A stretch of DNA of 8,257 bases from a virus. A model generated the notes under the pieces. The model worked only from the letters and a program-made list of their open reading frames with translations, ran no database searches and was not told the DNA's origin. The stretch lies in the UHGV virus genome UHGV-0211679, one strand, 5' to 3'. The position numbers and the translations under genes are program-made. This document shows positions 1-7,916 of this stretch, one piece after another (position 1 is the first letter of the stretch; each line of letters begins with the position of its first letter).

Positions 1-1095
1 ATGGCGGTTCATGTAGTAACAGGCAAATTAGGCTCAGGCAAGACACTTGTTAGTGTTTCCAGAATACAGGAAAGACTTGCTAAGGGTTGTCCTGTTGCCA
101 CTAATCTTGATCTTAAATTGCATAATATGCCTATGGTTGGGCGTTATGCGAAAAAAACGCGCGTTATTCGCATTCCTGACAAGCCTTCATTAAATGATTT
201 ACTTGCTATTGGTATTGGGAATACATCTTACGATGAATCCCGTAATGGCCTCCTTGTACTTGATGAATGTGGTACTTGGTTTAATTCCCGCTCATGGGGT
301 GATAAAGACAGACAACCTGTTATTGACTGGTTTTTACATGCCAGAAAATTAGGCTGGGATATTATATTTTTGATTCAGGATATTTCGATAATGGATAAGC
401 AAGCTCGTCTGGCGCTTGCTGAGCATGTTGTTTATTGTCGCCGTTCAGATAAATTAAACATTCCTTTTGTTGGCTCCATTATGAATTTGGTTTCAGGGGC
501 GCGATTTTCTTTACCAAAGGTACACTTTGGCATTGTCAAATATGGTGATAACGTTAATTCAATTACTGTTGATAAATGGATATACACCGGAAAATCATTA
601 TATTCCGCCTACAATACAAAACAGGTTTTTACTGATAACTATCCGCATGGTGCTTATTCGCTTTTGCCACCATTTATCACGCACGGTCAATTTTCTGTTC
701 ACAGAGGATTTAATTATTATATGCGCCTCACGAAAATTTATTTTCGCAAATCGAACCGTCTTATATTAATGCTTTCTTTTTTGGCGCTGGGGCTTGCGCT
801 TGGTTTCTGGCTCCAGTCTGGAAAGAATGTTGATGAAATCTCCGCTATTAAATCTGCTTATGCTGAACAGGCGAGGGCGGTAACGCCTGATTCGTCCAGT
901 GACTTACCCCGACTTTCTATTAATTCTTTTTCACAACTTGGCTTTGACGTTTCCGTTACGTTTGTTGATGCAAAAGGTACGAAATATCAGTATTTTGATT
1001 TGATTAAAGATGGTTATTCCGTTGATATTAAAGATGCCTGTCGTGTTGTTATTAGAAAAGGCCGTTATTTACAGACTGTTATCTGTCAGGAGTAA
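1..1095 (+). CDS. I: Filamentous-phage assembly protein pI (gene I; Zot-like P-loop NTPase)
   Basis: 364-aa ORF from ATG at 1, stop TAA 1093-1095. Walker A GKLGSGKT near N-terminus. Blocks such as LLVLDECGTWFN, IDWFLHARKLGWDIIFL and LAEHVVYCRR match my recollection of M13/IKe pI. Hydrophobic segment ILMLSFLALGLALGFWL in the C-terminal third. Confidence 0.95.
   Translation: MAVHVVTGKLGSGKTLVSVSRIQERLAKGCPVATNLDLKLHNMPMVGRYAKKTRVIRIPDKPSLNDLLAIGIGNTSYDESRNGLLVLDECGTWFNSRSWGDKDRQPVIDWFLHARKLGWDIIFLIQDISIMDKQARLALAEHVVYCRRSDKLNIPFVGSIMNLVSGARFSLPKVHFGIVKYGDNVNSITVDKWIYTGKSLYSAYNTKQVFTDNYPHGAYSLLPPFITHGQFSVHRGFNYYMRLTKIYFRKSNRLILMLSFLALGLALGFWLQSGKNVDEISAIKSAYAEQARAVTPDSSSDLPRLSINSFSQLGFDVSVTFVDAKGTKYQYFDLIKDGYSVDIKDACRVVIRKGRYLQTVICQE
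721..1095 (+). CDS. XI: pXI (gene XI), in-frame internal start within gene I
   Basis: In-frame ATG at 721 (codon 241 of gene I) giving MRLTKIYFRK..., the position and sequence context where Ff phages start pXI (M13 MKLTKIYLKK). Inferred by analogy only. Confidence 0.55.
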   Translation: MRLTKIYFRKSNRLILMLSFLALGLALGFWLQSGKNVDEISAIKSAYAEQARAVTPDSSSDLPRLSINSFSQLGFDVSVTFVDAKGTKYQYFDLIKDGYSVDIKDACRVVIRKGRYLQTVICQE

Positions 1096-1102
1096 TATTA
1101 TT

Positions 1103-2368
1103 ATGCGCTCTGTTATTGTTGCTTTTTTATTTGCCTGTTCATTCTGCGTTTCTGCTGAAACTGTTAATTTAAACAATTCATCTGTTCGCTCATTTGTTCA
1201 GTGGTATTCTTCAAAAACTGGCAAGCCTGTTATTGTTAATCCTGATATTAAAGGAAACGTAACCGTATTTAATGCTGATGTTAATCCAACAAATATTGAT
1301 GATTTCTTTAAGTCTGTTCTGAATGCTAACGGTTTTGTCATGCTTTCTGGCAATCCTGCGGTAGTCTCTTTGCCGTCTAAATTACCTTCACAGATGGTTT
1401 CGGATTCCGATGATTCTGATAACCAGTCTTATGATACTTTTCCTTCTGAGCCATCTTACCAGCCAGTACCTGTGGCGCTTACGGTCAGAAATTTTAAGCT
1501 GACAAAAGTTAGATCGTCCGATGTTCAGCAACTGATTAAAATTTATCTTGATTCTAATGGTGGTGGTAATGTCGTGGATTATCCAGGCAATAACTCGCTG
1601 ATTGTTTCTGCGCCTGACGAGCTGCTGCCGGTTCTGTCCGATTTTATCAATTCTGTGGATGTTGCCCGCGATCAGGTTCTCATTCAGTCGCTGATGTTTG
1701 AAACCAGCTTGTCTGATGGCGTTGATTTATCGTTTGCGGCAGGTTCTGCATCCGGTCATAAGGTTGCGGGGGGCTTTAATACTTCTGCACTGGGTAGCGC
1801 TCTTTCTACGGCGGGCGGTTCTTTTGGTATTTTTGATGGTAACGTGTTGGCGCTGTCTCTGCGTGCTGTCCAGAGTAATTCACGCTCTAAGGTGATTTCA
1901 ACGCCGCGTATTCTTACTCAGTCTGGTCAGACTGGTTACATTTCCGTAGGTAAGAATGTGCCGTTTATCACCGGAAAGGTAACGGGCGAATCTGCCGGGG
2001 TAAATAATCCGTTTCAGACTATCGAGCGTCATGATGTTGGCGTTTCTCTCAAGGTAACGCCTGTTGTCATGGGTAACGGGCAACTAGTTCTGACTATCGA
2101 CACTCGCGCTGATTCAATCAGCAATGATGATCAGGCATCCGATATTATTACTAATCAGCGCCAGATTCAGACGACAGTCCAGATTAAGGATGGTCAGACG
2201 TTGTTATTGGGGGGGCTTATCGATTCATCGTTTAGCAATGCTGAGCGTTCAGTTCCAGTTATAAGTAAAATTCCTCTTATAGGCTGGATTTTCAGTAGCA
2301 AGGCAGACAGCAATGAACAGCGTATTATGTATATTTTGCTTACAGCACATATCATTCGTCCACTTTGA
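1103..2368 (+). CDS. IV: Filamentous-phage secretin pIV (gene IV)
   Basis: ATG 1103 preceded by AGGAG (1088-1092); stop TGA 2366-2368. Signal-peptide-like N-terminus MRSVIVAFLFACSFCVSA. Secretin blocks GGSFGIF, VPFITGKVTGES, NPFQTIER, GQTLLLGGL and IPLIG match recalled Ff pIV. The track ORF extension back to 1010 overlaps gene I and is not used. Confidence 0.93.
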   Translation: MRSVIVAFLFACSFCVSAETVNLNNSSVRSFVQWYSSKTGKPVIVNPDIKGNVTVFNADVNPTNIDDFFKSVLNANGFVMLSGNPAVVSLPSKLPSQMVSDSDDSDNQSYDTFPSEPSYQPVPVALTVRNFKLTKVRSSDVQQLIKIYLDSNGGGNVVDYPGNNSLIVSAPDELLPVLSDFINSVDVARDQVLIQSLMFETSLSDGVDLSFAAGSASGHKVAGGFNTSALGSALSTAGGSFGIFDGNVLALSLRAVQSNSRSKVISTPRILTQSGQTGYISVGKNVPFITGKVTGESAGVNNPFQTIERHDVGVSLKVTPVVMGNGQLVLTIDTRADSISNDDQASDIITNQRQIQTTVQIKDGQTLLLGGLIDSSFSNAERSVPVISKIPLIGWIFSSKADSNEQRIMYILLTAHIIRPL

Positions 2369-2412
2369 TGGATAGCGGGTAGGTGCGTGAGCCCTGCTCG
2401 CTATCCATCAAA
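2364..2412 (+). other. Long DNA hairpin directly after gene IV (candidate packaging-signal or intergenic origin hairpin)
   Basis: Inverted repeat TTTGATGGATAGCG (2364-2377) / CGCTATCCATCAAA (2399-2412): 14 perfect bp, extendable by about 6 more with G-T wobbles. Overlaps the gene IV stop. In Ff phages the packaging-signal hairpin lies immediately after gene IV. The structure is seen; the role is inferred. Confidence 0.5.
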
Positions 2413-2437
2413 TGGACATTATTGATTGGGGTAACTA

Positions 2438-2746
2438 ATGGATTCTTATGGGATTTTATCTGCTCTGGCAGAACGAACGATTACAGCGGAAGAAGCAAAA
2501 ACAATGACACTTGCAGCCAGAAGTTCTTCGGCTCAGGTAAATGAAGCATCACTTGCTCTGTTACTGATTGATAATACTCTGGATGCGATCAAAGCAGCTG
2601 CCAGTGAAGGGAAAGGATACACTTTACTTCCTTCTTATGAGATTTCTTTAAAAGCCATTGATTTAGCAGAAGAATTTTTAAGGAAACAATGCGGCTATGT
2701 TATTGATAACCAGAATGGCGTAAGGACGGTCTATTGGTTTATATGA
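2438..2746 (+). CDS. Hypothetical protein, 102 aa, no recognisable family
   Basis: ORF ATG 2438 to TGA 2744-2746; weak SD-like GGGG 7 nt upstream. Mildly acidic, predicted mostly helical, no TM segment. Flanked by two long hairpins, so it could alternatively be non-coding intergenic sequence. Confidence 0.4.
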   Translation: MDSYGILSALAERTITAEEAKTMTLAARSSSAQVNEASLALLLIDNTLDAIKAAASEGKGYTLLPSYEISLKAIDLAEEFLRKQCGYVIDNQNGVRTVYWFI

Positions 2747-2747
2747 T

Positions 2748-2792
2748 AACCCCGGACAGTGACAAAACTTGCTTTTGTTAGTGTCCGGGGTT
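2748..2792 (+). other. Long near-perfect DNA hairpin (candidate origin or structured intergenic element)
   Basis: AACCCCGGACAGTGACAAAA (2748-2767) pairs with TTTTGTTAGTGTCCGGGGTT (2773-2792): about 19 bp stem with one mismatch and one G-T pair, 5-nt loop. A T7 run sits about 20 nt downstream (2813-2819), too far for a canonical intrinsic terminator. Confidence 0.5.
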
Positions 2793-2863
2793 GGCCAAGC
2801 CGAACAATTCTGTTTTTTTAGCGTTATTGCTGATTCGGCGCGGCAGCATTACGAGGAGATAAA

Positions 2864-3097
2864 ATGCAATTTTTCACATCCAGCGATACTGTAATGTTAT
2901 GTGCGAAGACCTGCGATCGCTGTGGTCGCCATGCGAAGACGGTGGTAGATGACATTGAGTTCAATGAGTTTCTGTCTGTTAATCACTTAGCTGGATACGG
3001 TTCAATTTTTGGTGACAGTAATCGCTTAAAACTGGATTTATGCCAACATTGCCTGAAAGACGTCCTGGGCCAGTGGATTACGGTCTGTGACCAATGA
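2864..3097 (+). CDS. Small zinc-ribbon-like protein, 77 aa (CxxC...CxxC)
   Basis: ATG 2864 preceded by a strong SD GAGGAG (2853-2858) with 5-nt spacer; stop TGA 3095-3097. Two CxxC pairs (CDRC and CQHC) about 43 residues apart suggest a Zn-binding ribbon. No family assignment possible by eye. Confidence 0.6.
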   Translation: MQFFTSSDTVMLCAKTCDRCGRHAKTVVDDIEFNEFLSVNHLAGYGSIFGDSNRLKLDLCQHCLKDVLGQWITVCDQ

Positions 3098-3135
3098 CGG
3101 CACCGGTAACGCCAGTTCCCACCATCCTTACCATT

Positions 3136-3168
3136 GGTGCGCATAATGTACGACTCGTTATGTTGAAA
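3136..3168 (+). other. dif-like XerC/XerD recombination site (candidate attP of an Xer-exploiting integrative phage)
   Basis: GGTGCGCATAA (3136-3146) is an 11/11 match to the XerC arm of E. coli dif (GGTGCGCATAA-TGTATA-TTATGTTAAAT, recalled). Then TGTACGACTCG (11-nt central region beginning TGTA), then TTATGTTGAAA (3158-3168), 9/11 to the XerD arm. Central region is longer than the canonical 6 bp. Confidence 0.6.
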
Positions 3169-3202
3169 AGGCCGCTGCGAAAATAGAATCCCGCAGCGGC
3201 CT
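3169..3202. terminator. Hairpin between convergent genes, putative bidirectional intrinsic terminator
   Basis: AGGCCGCTGCG (3169-3179) / CGCAGCGGCCT (3192-3202): 11-bp GC-rich stem, 12-nt loop. Followed by CTTTA on + and TTTCAA on the minus strand, so the U-tracts are short. Lies between the end of the 2864-3097 ORF and the end of the minus-strand operon. Confidence 0.5.
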
Positions 3203-3232
3203 CTTTAGCATAACGTCATTGTGCGAACCAAT

Positions 3233-3937
3233 TCATAATGCTGCGGGAGCCACGTAATAGACAATCACAAATACAGCTAATGCTCCACCTGCTCTTACCC
3301 AGTTTGATATTTTGACTTCTATAAACCCGGGTATAAATGAGACTACCCCAGCAACTGCTGCTGAAAGAATTATTCGAAAGAAAGTGTATTGAAAGTTCGT
3401 TGGATTAGGTATAAATATTGCGATTATTATAAAAAGAATAACAAGTAAAATGCCAAAGCTAAATGCCGCTATTCTCTCGTGTGCTTTTGTCAATTTTTCT
3501 TTTCCTTTATTGTCAAATCCATATACTGGCATATCTTCATTAACGAAAAGATTCCTTATTTCTTTTGCAGAACGTTTGTCATGGGCTTTTACTATCCTTT
3601 GCATTGAAGCAAAAGCAGTGGAGCTTGGTTTAATACTATTATCATTCATTACCTCTCTATATTTTTTGTAATGAGCTAAGATAAGGTGAAGAACATCAAT
3701 GCATGTTTCTGCAAGCCATTGATTCCATTGAGTATTATTTAATTCATCTACTGTTCTGTTATGTGCAGCGCAGTGTTCTAAATAGCCGAAAAAACTGTCT
3801 CCACATGAATTCACGGTATCAAAATCACATTTACCAGATAGGTAACACTCTAATGACTCAGTATATTTTTCATATAAACGCTCAATTTCTTTTTTTTGAT
3901 TATCAATGATACCGTGAACATCCATATCTGATTTCAC
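3233..3937 (-). CDS. Membrane protein, about 230 aa: Cys-rich soluble N-domain plus C-terminal transmembrane helices; function unknown
   Basis: Minus-strand ORF, stop TGA (rc of 3233-3235). First codon is GTG at 3937-3935, overlapping the upstream TAG (TAGTG); the first ATG is at 3925-3923. N-terminal about 155 aa hydrophilic with C-x5-C-x7-C-x10-C (LECYLSGKCDFDTVNSCGDSFFGYLEHC). C-terminus has hydrophobic stretches FSFGILLVILFIIIAIFIP, FFRIILSAAVAGVVSFIPGFI and GGALAVFVIVYYVAPAAL. Visibly AT-rich compared with the phage core. Confidence 0.6.
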   Translation of the reverse strand: MKSDMDVHGIIDNQKKEIERLYEKYTESLECYLSGKCDFDTVNSCGDSFFGYLEHCAAHNRTVDELNNTQWNQWLAETCIDVLHLILAHYKKYREVMNDNSIKPSSTAFASMQRIVKAHDKRSAKEIRNLFVNEDMPVYGFDNKGKEKLTKAHERIAAFSFGILLVILFIIIAIFIPNPTNFQYTFFRIILSAAVAGVVSFIPGFIEVKISNWVRAGGALAVFVIVYYVAPAAL

Positions 3938-4212
3938 TATCTTTTTTGTTGAGTGTTATTTGACTGGGATTGAATTTTTGCCAATAGCGAACTTGCTTTC
4001 GATGTATTCAATCCATTACAAATCATTCTTGTAATCGGTTTTTTGTAAATTCGATGAACGATATTTTCAACTTCAGTGATGCTTTCATTGCCACTGAGTT
4101 TTTTTATCTCATTGAACATCTCCTCCAATTGTTCATTTGTTGGATGCCATTTGATTATATCTAATTCTTCCTCTAATGCTTTTTTAAAAAGGAAAACCTG
4201 AAAAGATAACAT
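3937..4212 (-). CDS. Hypothetical small protein, 91 aa, with C-terminal tail paralogous to the upstream ORF
   Basis: ATG at 4212-4210 preceded by AAGGAAAG with 4-nt spacer; stop TAG (rc of 3937-3939). C-terminal 26 aa NGLNTSKASSLLAKIQSQSNNTQQKR parallels the tail of ORF 4214-4510. Confidence 0.55.
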   Translation of the reverse strand: MLSFQVFLFKKALEEELDIIKWHPTNEQLEEMFNEIKKLSGNESITEVENIVHRIYKKPITRMICNGLNTSKASSLLAKIQSQSNNTQQKR

Positions 4213-4213
4213 A

Positions 4214-4510
4214 TTACTTTCCTTGTGTTGGTTTAGTAGTGGATTGTTGAGCTTTTTCTAAAAGCCTTTTTGCTTTAGATGTGTCCAAACCATCTTGGGC
4301 AAAGCCTTGTTGCTTATCATTCTGTTTTTGTTCACTTTTTTTTGGCGTATTCATCAGTATATACTTTGACTCGTTTTGTTTATCTCGATGACTTACTTTT
4401 TGTTTAAGTTTTGCACAAACTAGAACGTGCAGTGTTGGTAATACTGCACGTTTGTACCATTCGTGGTACTTAATCCTTTTGTTTGGCAGACATGAGATCT
4501 TCTGCTGCAT
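4214..4510 (-). CDS. Hypothetical small K/Q-rich protein (start uncertain), tail paralogous to ORF 3937-4212
   Basis: Stop TAA (rc of 4214-4216), 1 nt before the ATG of the next gene. The track start at 4528 is a TTG; the first ATG is at 4510-4508, and a later ATG at 4354-4352 would give a 46-aa product. None has a clear SD. C-terminal 26 aa DGLDTSKAKRLLEKAQQSTTKPTQGK. Overlaps the end of the RHH gene if started at 4510. Confidence 0.3.
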   Translation of the reverse strand: MQQKISCLPNKRIKYHEWYKRAVLPTLHVLVCAKLKQKVSHRDKQNESKYILMNTPKKSEQKQNDKQQGFAQDGLDTSKAKRLLEKAQQSTTKPTQGK

Positions 4511-4652
4511 CTTTAGAGTAGTTATCAATCAGATAACCTAAAATCTCTGTCCATGTAATTGTTTTTCCTAGTTTTACACTGGCATTTATAGCCAGTCGTT
4601 CTAGTTTCATTTTTCTTTCTTCCGTCACGTTATAAGTCGTGCGCTTTGCCAT
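4470..4652 (-). CDS. Ribbon-helix-helix-like small DNA-binding protein, 60 aa (candidate phage repressor or antitoxin-type regulator)
   Basis: ATG at 4652-4650, stop TAA (rc of 4470-4472). MAKRTTYNVTEERKMKLERLAINASVKLGKTITWTEILGYLIDNYSKD fits an RHH pattern: short N-terminal beta-strand (TYNVT), helix, turn, helix. Divergent from gene II across a repeat-containing region. Confidence 0.55.
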   Translation of the reverse strand: MAKRTTYNVTEERKMKLERLAINASVKLGKTITWTEILGYLIDNYSKDAAEDLMSAKQKD

Positions 4653-4699
4653 TTTTTACGCTCGTTCAATGCAATATTTGAAGTGAGTATACATGCTCA

Positions 4700-4779
4700 T
4701 GAACTCATATCATCCAAGCCTCTTGAACTCACTAGCTCACTGATGTAATGTTAAAACACTAATGAACTACTGAACTCAT
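4700..4779. promoter_or_regulatory. Four direct TGAACT(C/A) repeats in the divergent control region (candidate operator or iteron array)
   Basis: TGAACTCAT at 4700-4708, TGAACTCAC at 4724-4732, TGAACTAC at 4763-4770, TGAACTCAT at 4771-4779. Located between the RHH gene start (4652, minus) and the gene II start (4822, plus). Confidence 0.45.
4723..4751 (+). promoter_or_regulatory. Candidate sigma70 promoter for gene II
   Basis: TTGAAC (4723-4728), 17-nt spacer, TAATGT (4746-4751). The -35 overlaps one TGAACT repeat. Pattern match by eye only. Confidence 0.3.
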
Positions 4780-4821
4780 GTGTTAGTAAGTCGTCATTTT
4801 TGCAATTTTGAGGATTTATTC

Positions 4822-5874
4822 GTGATCGATTGGCTTACCGGGATTTTCCCTTGCACACACAAACCGCTTCCGGCGGGGAGTGTTGTCAGCGTTGATGCTG
4901 ACGGTGCAATTGAGTGGGAAACCGTTAAGCGACTGACTGTTCGCGGCTCGCATGAAGCAACGATGAAAGTACGATCGATAGGATCTAATGGCGAAGGTAA
5001 AGCGACACATTTGTACATTGATGGTAATCCGTCCAAGTTTTTGCAGGGGCATTCTGTTGTTGGGTCGGATGATATACAAGGGCTCATGTTGACGGTCTAT
5101 GCCAGGATTTTATCCTTATTGAATATTCCTCATGATTTAGCGTCTTATAAAGCTGTTATAGCAGGTCAGTATAAAATTTCACGTGTTGACATTAATTACA
5201 TGTATTCATTATCTACGCTAGAAAATGTCAGATCATGGCTTTATGCCGCCGAATTTAAAGCTAAAACACGCCATGGTCGCGCATGTGGGAAAGGCGGTAC
5301 AGTTTATTTAGGTAAAAACTCCCGTCGATGGAGTCTGAAATTTTATTCAAAATATGATGAACACGTTTCGGGTAAAAAAGGGCACCAGATAGCCGAAGAT
5401 TTTGTACGAGCCGGGTTACTGGACTGGACGAAAGATAAATTACGTATTGAATTAACATTAAGAACAACTGAGCTTATTGATTTAAATTTAACGCTTGGCG
5501 CTAACTGGAATATGAAAACACCACGTCAATTATTCTCTGAATATGTAGGGAGAATAGAAATGAATCAGAATGCTATTTTAAGTGATGAAAAAATAACGAA
5601 ACTGCCAAGAAAAATACAGTCAACTTATTTACTTTGGAAACAAGGGGCTAACATGAAAGAAATGTTACCTCATAACACTTTTTATCGCCATAGAAGAGAA
5701 TTGCTTTCGTTCGGTATCGATATTAATTTCTATTGTGATTCACCAGACTCTAATAACGTTGTTCCGCTAATAAGAACGCTGGAAGCCAAGCCAGTGGAAA
5801 TCCCCTTATGGATTTATGAGAAAGGTTTTATTTTCGATTACAACCGTATTTCGCACGCCAGTAGCTGGCATTAA
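4822..5874 (+). CDS. II: Replication initiation protein pII (gene II, rolling-circle nickase)
   Basis: GTG start at 4822 preceded by GAGGA (4810-4814) with 7-nt spacer; product begins (M)IDWL..., compare M13 pII MIDML.... Blocks NPSKFLQGHSVVGSDD and NNVVPLIR match recalled M13 pII (SPAKVLQGHNVFGTTD, NNVVPLVR). Stop TAA 5872-5874. An upstream in-frame GTG at 4780 lacks an SD. Confidence 0.85.
   Translation: MIDWLTGIFPCTHKPLPAGSVVSVDADGAIEWETVKRLTVRGSHEATMKVRSIGSNGEGKATHLYIDGNPSKFLQGHSVVGSDDIQGLMLTVYARILSLLNIPHDLASYKAVIAGQYKISRVDINYMYSLSTLENVRSWLYAAEFKAKTRHGRACGKGGTVYLGKNSRRWSLKFYSKYDEHVSGKKGHQIAEDFVRAGLLDWTKDKLRIELTLRTTELIDLNLTLGANWNMKTPRQLFSEYVGRIEMNQNAILSDEKITKLPRKIQSTYLLWKQGANMKEMLPHNTFYRHRRELLSFGIDINFYCDSPDSNNVVPLIRTLEAKPVEIPLWIYEKGFIFDYNRISHASSWH
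5560..5874 (+). CDS. X: pX (gene X), in-frame internal start within gene II
   Basis: ATG at 5560 in the gene II frame with SD GGGAG (5548-5552); product MNQNAILSDEK..., 104 aa, equal to the C-terminal part of pII, as in Ff phages (M13 pX starts MNIYDDSAVL). Confidence 0.6.
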   Translation: MNQNAILSDEKITKLPRKIQSTYLLWKQGANMKEMLPHNTFYRHRRELLSFGIDINFYCDSPDSNNVVPLIRTLEAKPVEIPLWIYEKGFIFDYNRISHASSWH

Positions 5875-5885
5875 AGGAAAGTAAT

Positions 5886-6203
5886 ATGTCTAATTATGGT
5901 CTTTTCGTTAAGGGTAAAATGTTGGGAGCCCGCCAACGTAATAAAGTTAATGGTCAGGGCTATTATAATGAAATTGGTATTGGCCTTGAAATACCTGATG
6001 GTTTTGGTGGTACAAAGCAGGATCAAATTATTATTCGAGTTTCTCAGACTCTCGTTAACGCAGGTCTAATGAACCAGGCGAATGCTTTCATTGGGAAATT
6101 AGTTCAAATTCCTGTCTATGTCCGTGCGTGGTCAATGGAGGGTAGGGAAGGTGTAACTTATAATGTTTCTTCCGATGGTGGCATCGCAGAGATCAAAGGT
6201 TAA
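5886..6203 (+). CDS. Gene-V-position protein, 105 aa (putative ssDNA-binding protein by synteny; not recognisably Ff gVp-like)
   Basis: ATG 5886 preceded by AAGGAAAG; stop TAA 6201-6203. Sits between gene II/X and gene VII, where Ff phages encode gVp. The sequence (MSNYGLFVKGKMLGARQRN...) does not resemble M13 or IKe gVp as I recall them. Confidence 0.55.
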   Translation: MSNYGLFVKGKMLGARQRNKVNGQGYYNEIGIGLEIPDGFGGTKQDQIIIRVSQTLVNAGLMNQANAFIGKLVQIPVYVRAWSMEGREGVTYNVSSDGGIAEIKG

Positions 6204-6205
6204 AT

Positions 6206-6292
6206 ATGGACGATGTTATTCAAATTTTGATAGCGTCTGGCATCGTTATTTCTTTTGGCCTCGGCGCGATTACTGCGGGGGTCTTTCGTTAA
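6206..6292 (+). CDS. VII: Minor coat protein pVII (gene VII), 28 aa
   Basis: ATG 6206 three nt after the gene V stop; product MDDVIQILIASGIVISFGLGAITAGVFR is hydrophobic, similar in size and character to M13 pVII. Stop TAA 6290-6292 overlaps the gene IX ATG (TAATG). Confidence 0.6.
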   Translation: MDDVIQILIASGIVISFGLGAITAGVFR

Positions 6293-6387
6293 TGTATATC
6301 GTTTATTTCTTCGGGGCTTATACCTTTGGTTTTGCCCTTTTCTATGCGGTCGGTTCATTTAAATCATTTTCTGACCGATTAATGTAA
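6292..6387 (+). CDS. IX: Minor coat protein pIX (gene IX), 31 aa
   Basis: ATG 6292 in the TAATG overlap; product MYIVYFFGAYTFGFALFYAVGSFKSFSDRLM is a hydrophobic peptide resembling M13 pIX (MSVLVYSFASFVLGW...). Stop TAA 6385-6387. The longer track ORF from 6163 is an N-terminal over-extension. Confidence 0.65.
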   Translation: MYIVYFFGAYTFGFALFYAVGSFKSFSDRLM

Positions 6388-6406
6388 CCTTAATGGAGTT
6401 ATTCCT

Positions 6407-6649
6407 ATGAAAATTCTGTCTACTGTTAAATATAAAGTTGCTCTGGCTTCAACTGCGCTTTTTGTTTCTGCAAGTTCTTTTGCGGCTGAAGGCGCTACAG
6501 GTGGTACTGATTATGCAGGTCAGGCAATGGATGCTTTGTTGACTCAGGCAAATGATCTCATTGGTAAAGTATGGCCTGTTGTTGTGGCTGTGGTTGGCGC
6601 TGGGCTTGCCATTCGTATTTTCAAAAAATTCTCTTCAAAAGCGGTTTGA
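6407..6649 (+). CDS. VIII: Major coat protein pVIII precursor (gene VIII)
   Basis: ATG 6407 with GGAG 8 nt upstream; 80 aa. Signal peptide ending SSFA, then mature AEGATGG...[25 protein letters not shown]. The C-terminal [11 protein letters not shown] and WPVV match my recollection of IKe pVIII more closely than M13 (FKKFTSKAS). Stop TGA 6647-6649. Confidence 0.93.
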
Positions 6650-6658
6650 ATTTCACTC

Positions 6659-6683
6659 AGGGGCACTCGTTGCCCCTTTATTA
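6659..6683 (+). terminator. Rho-independent terminator after gene VIII
   Basis: AGGGGCA (6659-6665), loop CTCGT, TGCCCCT (6671-6677), then TTTATT. Position matches the strong central terminator downstream of gene VIII in Ff phages. Confidence 0.75.
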
Positions 6684-6695
6684 AAGCGGGTTACT

Positions 6696-7916
6696 ATGAA
6701 AAGGAAAATATTAATTCTTTCCGCTGTCCTCATTTCTCCTTTTTCACATGCTGAGTCATGGGAAAGCATTACTAAATCCACTTATCAAAGCTCTGCCTAC
6801 GCTGAAAGTAAGCAAATAACCAATCAGGATGGCTCTAAGTCAACGGTTTACTATATTGATGCTGCTATGCAGGCCTCCGCTTGTCAGGGTGCTAAATCCA
6901 GTGCTCAGAGTGTATTTACTCAGGTTAAACCAACTTATGAGGGTATCTGGCCTGATTCTGAATTCCGTCTTGTTTTTACTGGTGATTGTACTTACAGCGA
7001 TTCACCAGGGCAGAAGGATAAATATTGGTCTTTAACGGCTTATATTGTTGGTGATATTCAGCGTTCTGTTCCTGATGAAAAACCTACTGACCCGACACCA
7101 GAAGAAATTTGTGAAGCGAAGCCGCCAGAAGAAGGTGTATTTAATAATGTTGATTCATATGATGGTGGTCGTTATATCTACTATAACGGCTGTGAATATG
7201 AGGCTACTGGTGTCATTGTTTGTCAGGGTGATGGTACTGTTTGCGCTGCAACATGGAAGCCTACAGGTACTGTAGCTGACCCCTCTGATAAACCCTCAAC
7301 CCCCCAAAATGGTGGTGGTGAGTCTGGCGGTGGTGAGTCTGGCGGTGGTGAGTCCGGTGGCGGTAGTTCTGGCGGTGGCTTTAGTGGTTCCAGTCTTTCT
7401 AAAGGTGATATTCAGTCTGCTATCGAAGGTGCTTCACCCAAAATAGCCAGCGATATTCATGATAAATTAACGGAGAAAGACACTTCATCAGATGATAAAA
7501 AAAATGCCGATGAACAAACTAGGAATAATATAAATCGTCTTGACGATTCCATTAACAATCTTACGCGGGGGGCTGGCCGTTTTGCTGACCCTTCAGGTGG
7601 TGATTCTCGTTATGGAAAGGGCGACTCTGAATTAGATGGCGCTTCTACTTTGGCTGATTCTGAATTGGGAATTGAAAAGGATTCTCACGGTGCTTTATGG
7701 GAAGCATTTTTAAATAAAGGTGCTATGCTGCCTAATTTACCCAATGGTAACGGCTGCTCTGATTTTATTATTTTTCCCGGAGAGGTTTATCAGATTGATA
7801 TTGGTTGCGATAAATTACTGACTATTAAAGATGTTCTTTCATGGGTTTTTTATTGCCTTACGTTCTGGTATGTCTTTACTTCTTTAACTTCATTGCTTCG
7901 CAAAGGGGGTGAGTGA
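6696..7916 (+). CDS. III: Adsorption protein pIII (gene III) with Gly-rich linker
   Basis: ATG 6696 gives signal peptide [19 protein letters not shown]. Gly/Ser-rich linker [23 protein letters not shown] and a hydrophobic C-terminal anchor ([14 protein letters not shown]) are typical of pIII. Stop TGA 7914-7916 overlaps the gene VI ATG (TGATG). The track start at 6552 overlaps gene VIII and is rejected. Confidence 0.9.
7311..7379 (+). repeat. Tandem 15-bp repeats encoding the pIII (GGGES)n linker
   Basis: GGTGGTGAGTCTGGC at 7314-7328 and 7329-7343, with diverged copies at 7344-7358 and 7359-7373. Confidence 0.85.

Follow-up and report, generated by a model that had tools for sequence, protein, structure and literature searches.

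A predicted ribbon-helix-helix repressor and its candidate operators appear to form an exchangeable module beside gene II of an Escherichia coli filamentous prophage

Introduction

What purpose is served by the short repeats in front of gene II in UHGV virus genome UHGV-0211679? This stretch of 8,257 nucleotides (hereafter the window) carries a gene for a 60-aa protein of the predicted ribbon-helix-helix (RHH) type that runs divergently from gene II, the rolling-circle replication gene, and several copies of TGAACT(C/A) lie in the 169-bp gap between the two (4653-4821). An earlier note on this DNA likened the arrangement to the rstR-rstA switch of CTXphi and proposed that the RHH protein represses phage replication and regulates its own operon. 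Filamentous prophages at dif (CTXphi, YpfPhi, and CUS-1) influence both virulence and fitness in major pathogens, and their production and superinfection immunity depend on a repressor-operator module beside the replication gene. By its sequence matches the window is an E. coli filamentous prophage of the CUS-1/YpfPhi kind, integrating at dif and laid out like CTXphi, an assignment based on a matching tandem prophage beside hipBA and on a partial dif at the phage-host junction. The lineage and the CTXphi layout used for comparison are those of PMC4266046.

The evidence makes it highly probable that the gap serves a swappable immunity module as its operator-promoter region and that its repeats are the RHH protein's own sites. 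The earlier reading is supported computationally. The analysis shows that the repeats exist, that they are conserved, and that they go with the RHH gene, and it predicts the fold of that gene's product; binding, repression, autoregulation, and immunity are inferred.

Repeats in the gap

All four repeats listed in the earlier note lie where it had placed them, with TGAACTC at 4700-4706 (repeat A), 4724-4730 (B), and 4771-4777 (C2) and TGAACTA at 4763-4769 (C1). Elsewhere in the window TGAACTM has only two matches, at 2957 and 6100, both on the minus strand. Three of the copies in the gap can be lengthened to the 8-mer TGAACTCA and the 12-mer CTnnTGAACTCA. Perfect TGA(AC/GT)TCA sites number three in the gap, against 0.006 expected from base composition, and 8 of 500 dinucleotide-preserving shuffles of the window had at least three sites (one mismatch allowed) inside 100 bp.

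Four units, however, proved to be too few. Tetramer boxes of the form nCTC or ACTA recur in an 8-bp register, and they make up one array of six units, of which the third is degenerate, and a second array of three (Table 1). All five CTC triplets in 4690-4740 fall in a single 8-bp phase, anchored on repeat B. Array 1 includes repeats A (4700-4707) and B (4724-4731) and spans the spacer of the candidate leftward promoter as well as the -35 element and spacer of the candidate gene II promoter. Array 2 includes C1 (4763-4769/4770) and C2 (4771-4778) and is located a little past the point at which transcription of gene II is predicted to start. Simple direct TGAACT(C/A) repeats were rejected as a description on two grounds, the 8-bp box register and the flips in orientation that are seen in relatives (see below). 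The unit of recognition is probably either a pseudo-palindrome or a ParG-like array of ACTC boxes, and both would predict the same footprint. The operator prediction is concrete, with nine boxes at named coordinates.

Folded as a single strand, the gap has no excess of structure over shuffled sequence (z +1.23), a result that speaks against both an origin of the hairpin type and an RNA element. We also observed a 23-nt direct repeat (4633-4655 and 4787-4809; 78% identical) that shares TAAGTCGT and TTTGCnATTTT. It joins the start of the RHH gene to the region just upstream of gene II and may be due to chance.

Conservation among relatives

Megablast of the whole window against phage records gave matches to IKe and Erwinia phages only, and there only within a short part of gene IV. 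With no close phage deposited, relatives were drawn from bacterial and metagenome contigs (numbered with the prefix L), as loci encoding RHH proteins 59-92% identical to that of the window, and seven distinct gaps were aligned. In every locus with an intact gene II, that gene and the RHH gene point away from each other, with 133-195 bp between them. The layout of repressor and replication gene around a short, promoter-bearing gap is thus the same in all related loci that contain gene II.

Most columns of the alignment vary. The invariant positions fall on TCATGAnnTCA (4697-4707), on TTGAACTCA (4723-4731), on the block at site C (4763-4784), and on the T's of the gene II -10 element (4746-4751); within array 1 these are columns 4697-4702, 4705-4707, and 4723-4731. 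The motif is held at three fixed places while its flanks diverge. Some relatives have GT in place of the central AC at sites A and C, which turns the 8-mer into its own reverse complement, and the position of site C is occupied by TGAACTCA, by TGAGTTCA, or by tandem and inverted combinations. Site B of L009 is a perfect 16-bp palindrome, TGAACTCATGAGTTCA. Such AC/GT flips and the L009 palindrome are the behaviour expected of a site for a two-fold symmetric dimer. Inverted GAGT boxes are present in L009, L014, L019, and L020.

The RHH gene is followed by open reading frames (ORFs) that differ in almost every relative (L005-L017 and L022; 76-369 aa, mostly without a Pfam match). This stretch has the look of a hypervariable slot for cargo, bounded by the repressor gene and attP.

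Linkage of the repeats to the RHH gene

The earlier note had named an outcome that would overturn its reading, in which the repeats are the binding and nicking origin of the gene II protein (pII) and the RHH protein has no effect on gene II expression. As a rival explanation, this would leave the RHH protein with no connection to the repeats. The pII of Ff phages is known to bind short repeats near its nick site, and the gap adjoins gene II in a phage family with no mapped origin. The motif, however, travels with the RHH gene across two unrelated types of gene II. Six loci (L005, L007, L008, L009, L014, and L016) have an If1-type gene II without significant BLASTP similarity to that of the window, and all six keep an RHH protein (59-86% identical) and at least three perfect motifs. 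Conversely, the third prophage of the array in E. coli FDAARGOS_1257 has a gene II product 86% identical to ours and a 148-aa helix-turn-helix (HTH) protein in the repressor slot; its gap of 171 bp, at 22933-23103 of that chromosome (L001), lacks the motif and has inverted repeats of its own. Homology between this prophage and the window ends at 4480 and restarts at 4823, within the start codon of gene II, and window positions 4481-4822 are replaced wholesale. The repeats therefore follow the RHH gene, since they are kept beside an If1-type gene II and lost where a closely similar gene II has an HTH repressor as its partner. Because of this homology break and of the occurrence of RHH gene and motif beside the unrelated gene II, the gene and the gap are, on the sequences compared, an exchangeable block, like rstR and ig-2 of CTXphi.

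Another element suits the role of origin better. Two hairpins that abut the stop codon of the RHH gene (single-strand fold z -5.4) track the type of gene II: one version accompanies the CUS-1-type gene II whichever repressor is present, and the other accompanies the If1-type, including in If1 itself. We regard these hairpins as a candidate plus-strand origin (an analogue of ig-1) or as a terminator. They are the better candidate because they follow gene II type, while the gap has neither excess structure nor a match to the Ff nick sequence GTTCTTTAATAGTGGAC within three mismatches. That the repeats are a pII origin is accordingly extremely unlikely, and it is the comparison among relatives that separates operator from origin.

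The motif also varies with the predicted DNA-contacting ribbon of the protein, KRTTYNVT in the window. A search of related loci for the motif, as proposed in the earlier note, found perfect copies in nine of ten loci whose ribbon reads R-x-T-Y-N, down to 48% identity, vs none of five with other ribbons. L019 (57% identical) has ATGAGTTC in tandem at 8-bp spacing, and L020 (48% identical), a locus that comes from a CTX-like phage encoding RstB, has AATGAACTCATGAGTTTAC and two more TGAGTT sites. Where the ribbon is KRTTMAIV (If1 and L022) there are repeats of the TTATGC type, and where it is KRGDTTVR (pre-CTX and VAI2) there are three or four GCATGC palindromes.

Promoters

The earlier note had the repeats overlapping a candidate gene II promoter, and this is borne out. 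Its -35 hexamer lies inside repeat B, and the arrangement TTGAAC-17 nt-TAnnnT is kept in all seven aligned relatives; on these positions repeat B sits over the gene II -35 element.

On the other strand, the -10 element proposed for the RHH gene is present, and the block that contains it (AGTATACA, 4686-4693) is conserved in six of seven divergent relatives. This leftward promoter is the sole promoter-like match that the promoter scan returned in the region. The repeats were said to flank this -10, but all of them lie upstream of it, with repeat A in the spacer of the leftward promoter and C1 and C2 just past the predicted gene II start. Transcription is predicted to begin near 4758 for gene II and near 4679 for the RHH gene.

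The ORFs that follow the RHH gene gave no consensus promoter of their own, a result compatible with a co-regulated cargo operon. Two strong hairpins between the RHH stop codon and the next ORF leave alternatives, and co-transcription of these genes is only presumed.

As repeat B is itself the conserved -35 of gene II, the repeats could instead be reiterated TTGAAC-like hexamers, or sites for a host factor, conserved for promoter function; Yersinia RovA, for example, binds the promoter region of the YpfPhi replication gene (PMC4266046). Sites A and C, however, are not at the -35 of any conserved -10, and they tolerate an inversion of the central dinucleotide that would destroy a -35. Nor is the motif present in the HTH-variant prophage, which shares the host cell and has nearly the same gene II, and it changes with the ribbon residues even within enterobacterial hosts (L022 and If1). 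We judge this explanation very unlikely.

The predicted 60-aa RHH protein

A library-wide HMMER search placed the protein in a family with 65 cluster representatives, and an alignment of 51 sequences was used for the structure model and for profile searches. Seven of the 51 members have sub-threshold Pfam matches to ParG (best E 0.019), and the profile weakly matches ParG (E 0.26) and TTHA0139 (E 0.23) among PDB sequences. When the family profile is aligned to the ParG RHH domain with hhalign (E 5e-5), KRTTYNVT is paired with the ParG ribbon KRVNVNFD and ITWTEILGYLIDNY with ITDVVNQLVDNW.

With the 51-sequence alignment, AlphaFold modelled the monomer at a pLDDT (predicted local distance difference test) of 94.8, with residues 1-10 extended and followed by two helices. 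A lone RHH subunit is not a compact fold, so we modelled a dimer as two copies fused by a linker. In that model residues 4-10 of both copies become strands, and RHH matches were obtained from it. The predicted topology is strand-helix-helix, with the N-terminal strands of the two subunits paired as an antiparallel ribbon. A G-x-S/T/N turn between helices A and B defines the RHH superfamily. The translation has G29-K30-T31 at this place, with G as the column consensus of the alignment. The protein is thus predicted to form an RHH dimer, and the identity that the earlier note gave to the product of 4470-4652 agrees with both model and turn.

The resemblance to rstR-rstA turns out to reflect homology. 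The protein is 40.7% identical over 95% of its length to the 'environmental' RstR of CTXphi/pre-CTXphi (GQ466611, KR063268), whose gene has the same divergent position beside the replication gene. The RstR-like protein of VAI1 and VAI2, which are Vibrio phages, shares 42% identity with it, and an ORF left without annotation in If1, in the 'major intergenic region' of that phage, shares 58%.

The exact 60-aa protein occurs on at least 1000 contigs, and exact or near-identical proteins are filed under Salmonella, E. coli, Klebsiella, and Brenneria names. The RHH gene and gap are present in 49 of 5426 complete E. coli genomes, at a median of two places per genome. In E. coli EC5502 (NZ_CP092647.1) they were seen at 15 places. 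Together, this count and the median indicate large tandem prophage arrays.

The profile match to ParG and the ParG-style ACTC boxes raise another reading, in which the protein binds the boxes mainly as a ParG-like centromere-binding or activating protein, serving segregation or stability of the replicative form or activation of its own operon; a distant family member (38% identical) also lies beside a gene for a CbiA/ParA-type ATPase. Against this, the window encodes no ParA/ParF partner, the boxes lie over the gene II -35 and just past the start, which is the geometry of repression, and the homologous RstR alleles are annotated as repressors. We consider a mainly partitioning or activating role highly unlikely. 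ParG, moreover, also represses transcription at its own operator, so the roles of partition protein and repressor are not mutually exclusive.

Proposed regulation and its standing

On the preferred reading, repression by the RHH protein, the ribbon KRTTYNVT of the dimer would read the TGA(AC/GT)TCA sites, alias ACTC-type boxes with 4-bp spacers. Several dimers would bind side by side and coat both arrays, and RNA polymerase would be blocked at the gene II promoter; gene II, rolling-circle replication, and the downstream phage genes would be shut off. The repressor's own leftward promoter would also be held down and would limit its synthesis. In a lysogen, replication and virion gene expression would stay low, and an incoming phage with the same module would be silenced, giving superinfection immunity.

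Several results weigh against this reading. The candidate gene II promoter fell below the threshold of the consensus promoter scan, so that it rests on conservation, and the leftward promoter has a poor -35. The two arrays differ in phase by one base, and AT content in the spacers between boxes is only 50-75%. The sequence fits the 8-bp pseudo-palindrome and the 4-bp box alike. Our searches found no inducing signal, and the LexA box CTGT-N8-ACAG had no match in 4653-4821 with up to one mismatch. As for the protein, nothing was found at threshold in Pfam or by phmmer against PDB sequences, a Foldseek comparison of the monomer model with PDB had no meaningful match, and the hhalign probability for ParG is only 66.7%. 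Finally, the role of the HTH counterpart in YpfPhi 'awaits experimental demonstration' (PMC4266046).

Comparison with known systems

CTXphi is the closest model. There, as here, repressor and replication gene diverge from a gap that contains the operators (predicted ones in our case); repressor and gap can be replaced as a block between otherwise similar phages; and the prophage lies at dif in tandem arrays. In CTXphi, LexA co-regulates PrstA, a feature that is not strictly defining, whereas no LexA box was found in the gap here. The present phage also differs in having operators made of short 8-bp units in arrays, an enterobacterial host, a gene II and structural genes like those of CUS-1/YpfPhi, and more ORFs downstream of the repressor on the same strand. 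The El Tor and classical RstR proteins have no detectable similarity to the RHH protein; among CTXphi records, tblastn of phage records matched only the 'environmental' allele. For eight rstR alleles, specific repression of the cognate ig-2 promoters has been demonstrated (PMC11509585). The termini of rstR-6 that are encoded in its primers (MKKKYTSLRV..., ...NTQKTDLKR) look like the RHH family, a hint that rstR-6 may be of this type (PMC11509585 and supplement).

For the operator, the nearest parallel is ParG of plasmid TP228 with its OF operator and parH. ParG recognizes degenerate ACTC boxes with invariant 4-bp spacers, direct or inverted, and represses its own promoter; one dimer binds per box, neighbouring dimers touch, and ribbon positions 2, 4, and 6 contact bases (PMC3413123). 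The two proteins share the form of a small RHH dimer, the residues at ribbon positions 2 and 6 (R, T, and N at positions 2, 4, and 6 here; R, N, and N in ParG), and a similar second helix (ITWTEILGYLIDNY here, ITDVVNQLVDNW in ParG). Our locus likewise has ACTC cores at 8-bp spacing, which are direct or inverted in relatives, as in a tetramer-box operator. Differences are several. Helix A is about four residues longer here and the flexible N-terminal tail of ParG is missing; the spacers are conserved and contain TGA, where those of ParG are simply AT-rich; the boxes form two arrays, 1 bp out of phase, with the -10 region between them; and the sequence relationship is weak (hhalign probability 66.7%). 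No ParF/ParA ATPase is among the ORFs of the window and no partition role is evident, so we describe a ParG-like operator and not a partition system.

YPO2273 of YpfPhi and the CUS-1 regulator occupy the same genomic slot in the same phage lineage. They differ in having an HTH fold and an unrelated operator sequence, and for this reason the RHH and HTH types should be heteroimmune. Arc and Mnt of P22, CopG, and MetJ are likewise RHH dimers that bind cooperatively to adjacent promoter sites, in MetJ to tandem 8-bp boxes. They have no detectable sequence similarity to our protein, however, and are not switches of a filamentous phage replication gene.

A literature search found no paper on an RHH repressor or its operators in phages of the CUS-1, YpfPhi, or If1 type. 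On these comparisons, a second, RHH-based type of immunity would be defined for the enterobacterial members beside the HTH type. The module follows the known CTXphi-type principle and is in this respect fairly ordinary: its protein is a homologue of a little-studied class of RstR alleles, combined with a ParG-like operator architecture, and it adds a member rather than a new principle. Uses could include forecasting which prophages are heteroimmune or can be stacked in tandem arrays and building controllable filamentous vectors.

Ribbon residues and box sequence

The co-variation described above allows a further proposal, which we hold only tentatively and would not yet favour: that the RHH cassette is portable between CUS-1/YpfPhi-, If1-, and CTX-type phages, forms one family with ParG, and obeys a ribbon-to-box code. 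Read this way, R-T-N or R-N-N ribbons may recognize ACTC cores and other ribbons GCATGC or TTATGC. If true, operator specificity, and hence the heteroimmunity groups of enterobacterial and vibrio phages, could be predicted from eight residues.

Two family members deserve separate mention. In If1 (L002, NC_001954) the RHH ORF is at 5119-5310 on the minus strand, and the other stretches of interest are 5388-5831, 6031-7086, and 7316-8432. An IS200/IS605-like element (a TnpA-like ORF and the TnpB-looking 'ORF348') lies between the RHH ORF and gene II, and gene II appears to be broken across two frames. Through this insertion the repressor gene may have become separated from its promoter, leaving a cryptic copy in a phage known only in its free form. 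In L021 (1501-2473) the 38%-identical member stands just upstream of the gene for a CbiA/ParA/MipZ-type ATPase, which hints that some members of the family act in ParG-like partition cassettes.

Genome context

The 8257 bases are a whole filamentous phage genome, numbered from the start of gene I (Table 1).

Table 1. Features of the window; promoters, control region, and arrays are predictions.
Feature	Position	Strand	Details
Candidate gene II promoter	4723-4751	+	-35 TTGAAC 4723-4728; 17-nt spacer; -10 TAATGT 4746-4751
Candidate leftward RHH-gene promoter	4686-4691 (-10); 4708-4713 (-35)	-	-10 TATACT (reverse complement of 4686-4691); 16-nt spacer; -35 ATGATA
Predicted divergent control region	4653-4821 (169 bp)		CTXphi ig-2 analogue; both promoters and all repeats
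Box array 1	4695-4738	+	six 8-bp units: GCTC 4695, ACTC 4703, CATC 4711 (degenerate), CCTC 4719, ACTC 4727, GCTC 4735
Box array 2	4758-4778	+	ACTA 4758, ACTA 4766, ACTC 4774
RHH gene	4470-4652	-	RstR-like predicted immunity repressor; 60 aa; ribbon KRTTYNVT, residues 3-10; turn G29-K30-T31 between helices
Two hairpins	4424-4452; 4454-4469	.	abut RHH stop codon
Gene I (Zot)	1-1095		
ORF containing gene IV (secretin)	1010-2368		followed by two small plus-strand ORFs
Four minus-strand ORFs	3233-3937; 3937-4212; 4214-4354/4528; 4470-4652	-	
Gene II	4822 (GTG)-5874	+	rolling-circle replication initiator; ribosome-binding site GAGGA 4810-4814; Pfam Phage_CRI 3e-70, G2P_X_C 5e-29
Gene V	5886-6203		
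Gene VIII	6407-6649		
Gene III	inside ORF 6552-7916		
Gene VI	7913-8257		

Bases 2400-5900 are 100% identical to a tandem-copy prophage beside hipBA in E. coli FDAARGOS_1257. In that chromosome (L001), 4400-27501 is a tandem array at the dif locus, in which a left-truncated RHH-type copy and a full RHH-type copy are followed by the related phage with the HTH repressor, presumably heteroimmune to the first two. The repeat unit of the array is 90 bp longer than the window, with the extra length in the glycine-rich linker of gene III.

The full 28-bp dif of E. coli has no match in the window at up to three mismatches. A partial, dif-like attP at 3136-3168, with a hairpin at 3156-3215, was recognized by reading across the phage-host junction. 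GGTGCGCATAATGTA (3136-3150) equals E. coli dif over its XerC arm and part of its centre, TTATGTTGAAA (3158-3168) is similar to the XerD arm, and the same junction adjoins hipA in the E. coli lysogen (L001, 4381-4395).

No match was found in the window with Rfam at gathering thresholds. Downstream of the RHH gene, an ORF of 104 aa (4214-4528, minus strand) overlaps the 3' end of that gene, crosses the hairpins, and has a full-length match to PHROG 6875. RefSeq annotates only its 46-aa part at 4214-4354, and the long form is doubtful for that reason and because the extension crosses the conserved hairpins. Last, two 20-nt inverted repeats (90% complementary) lie at 2364-2412 and 2748-2792, after gene IV and after the ORF at 2438-2746 respectively, and may be a packaging signal, a minus-strand origin, or terminators.

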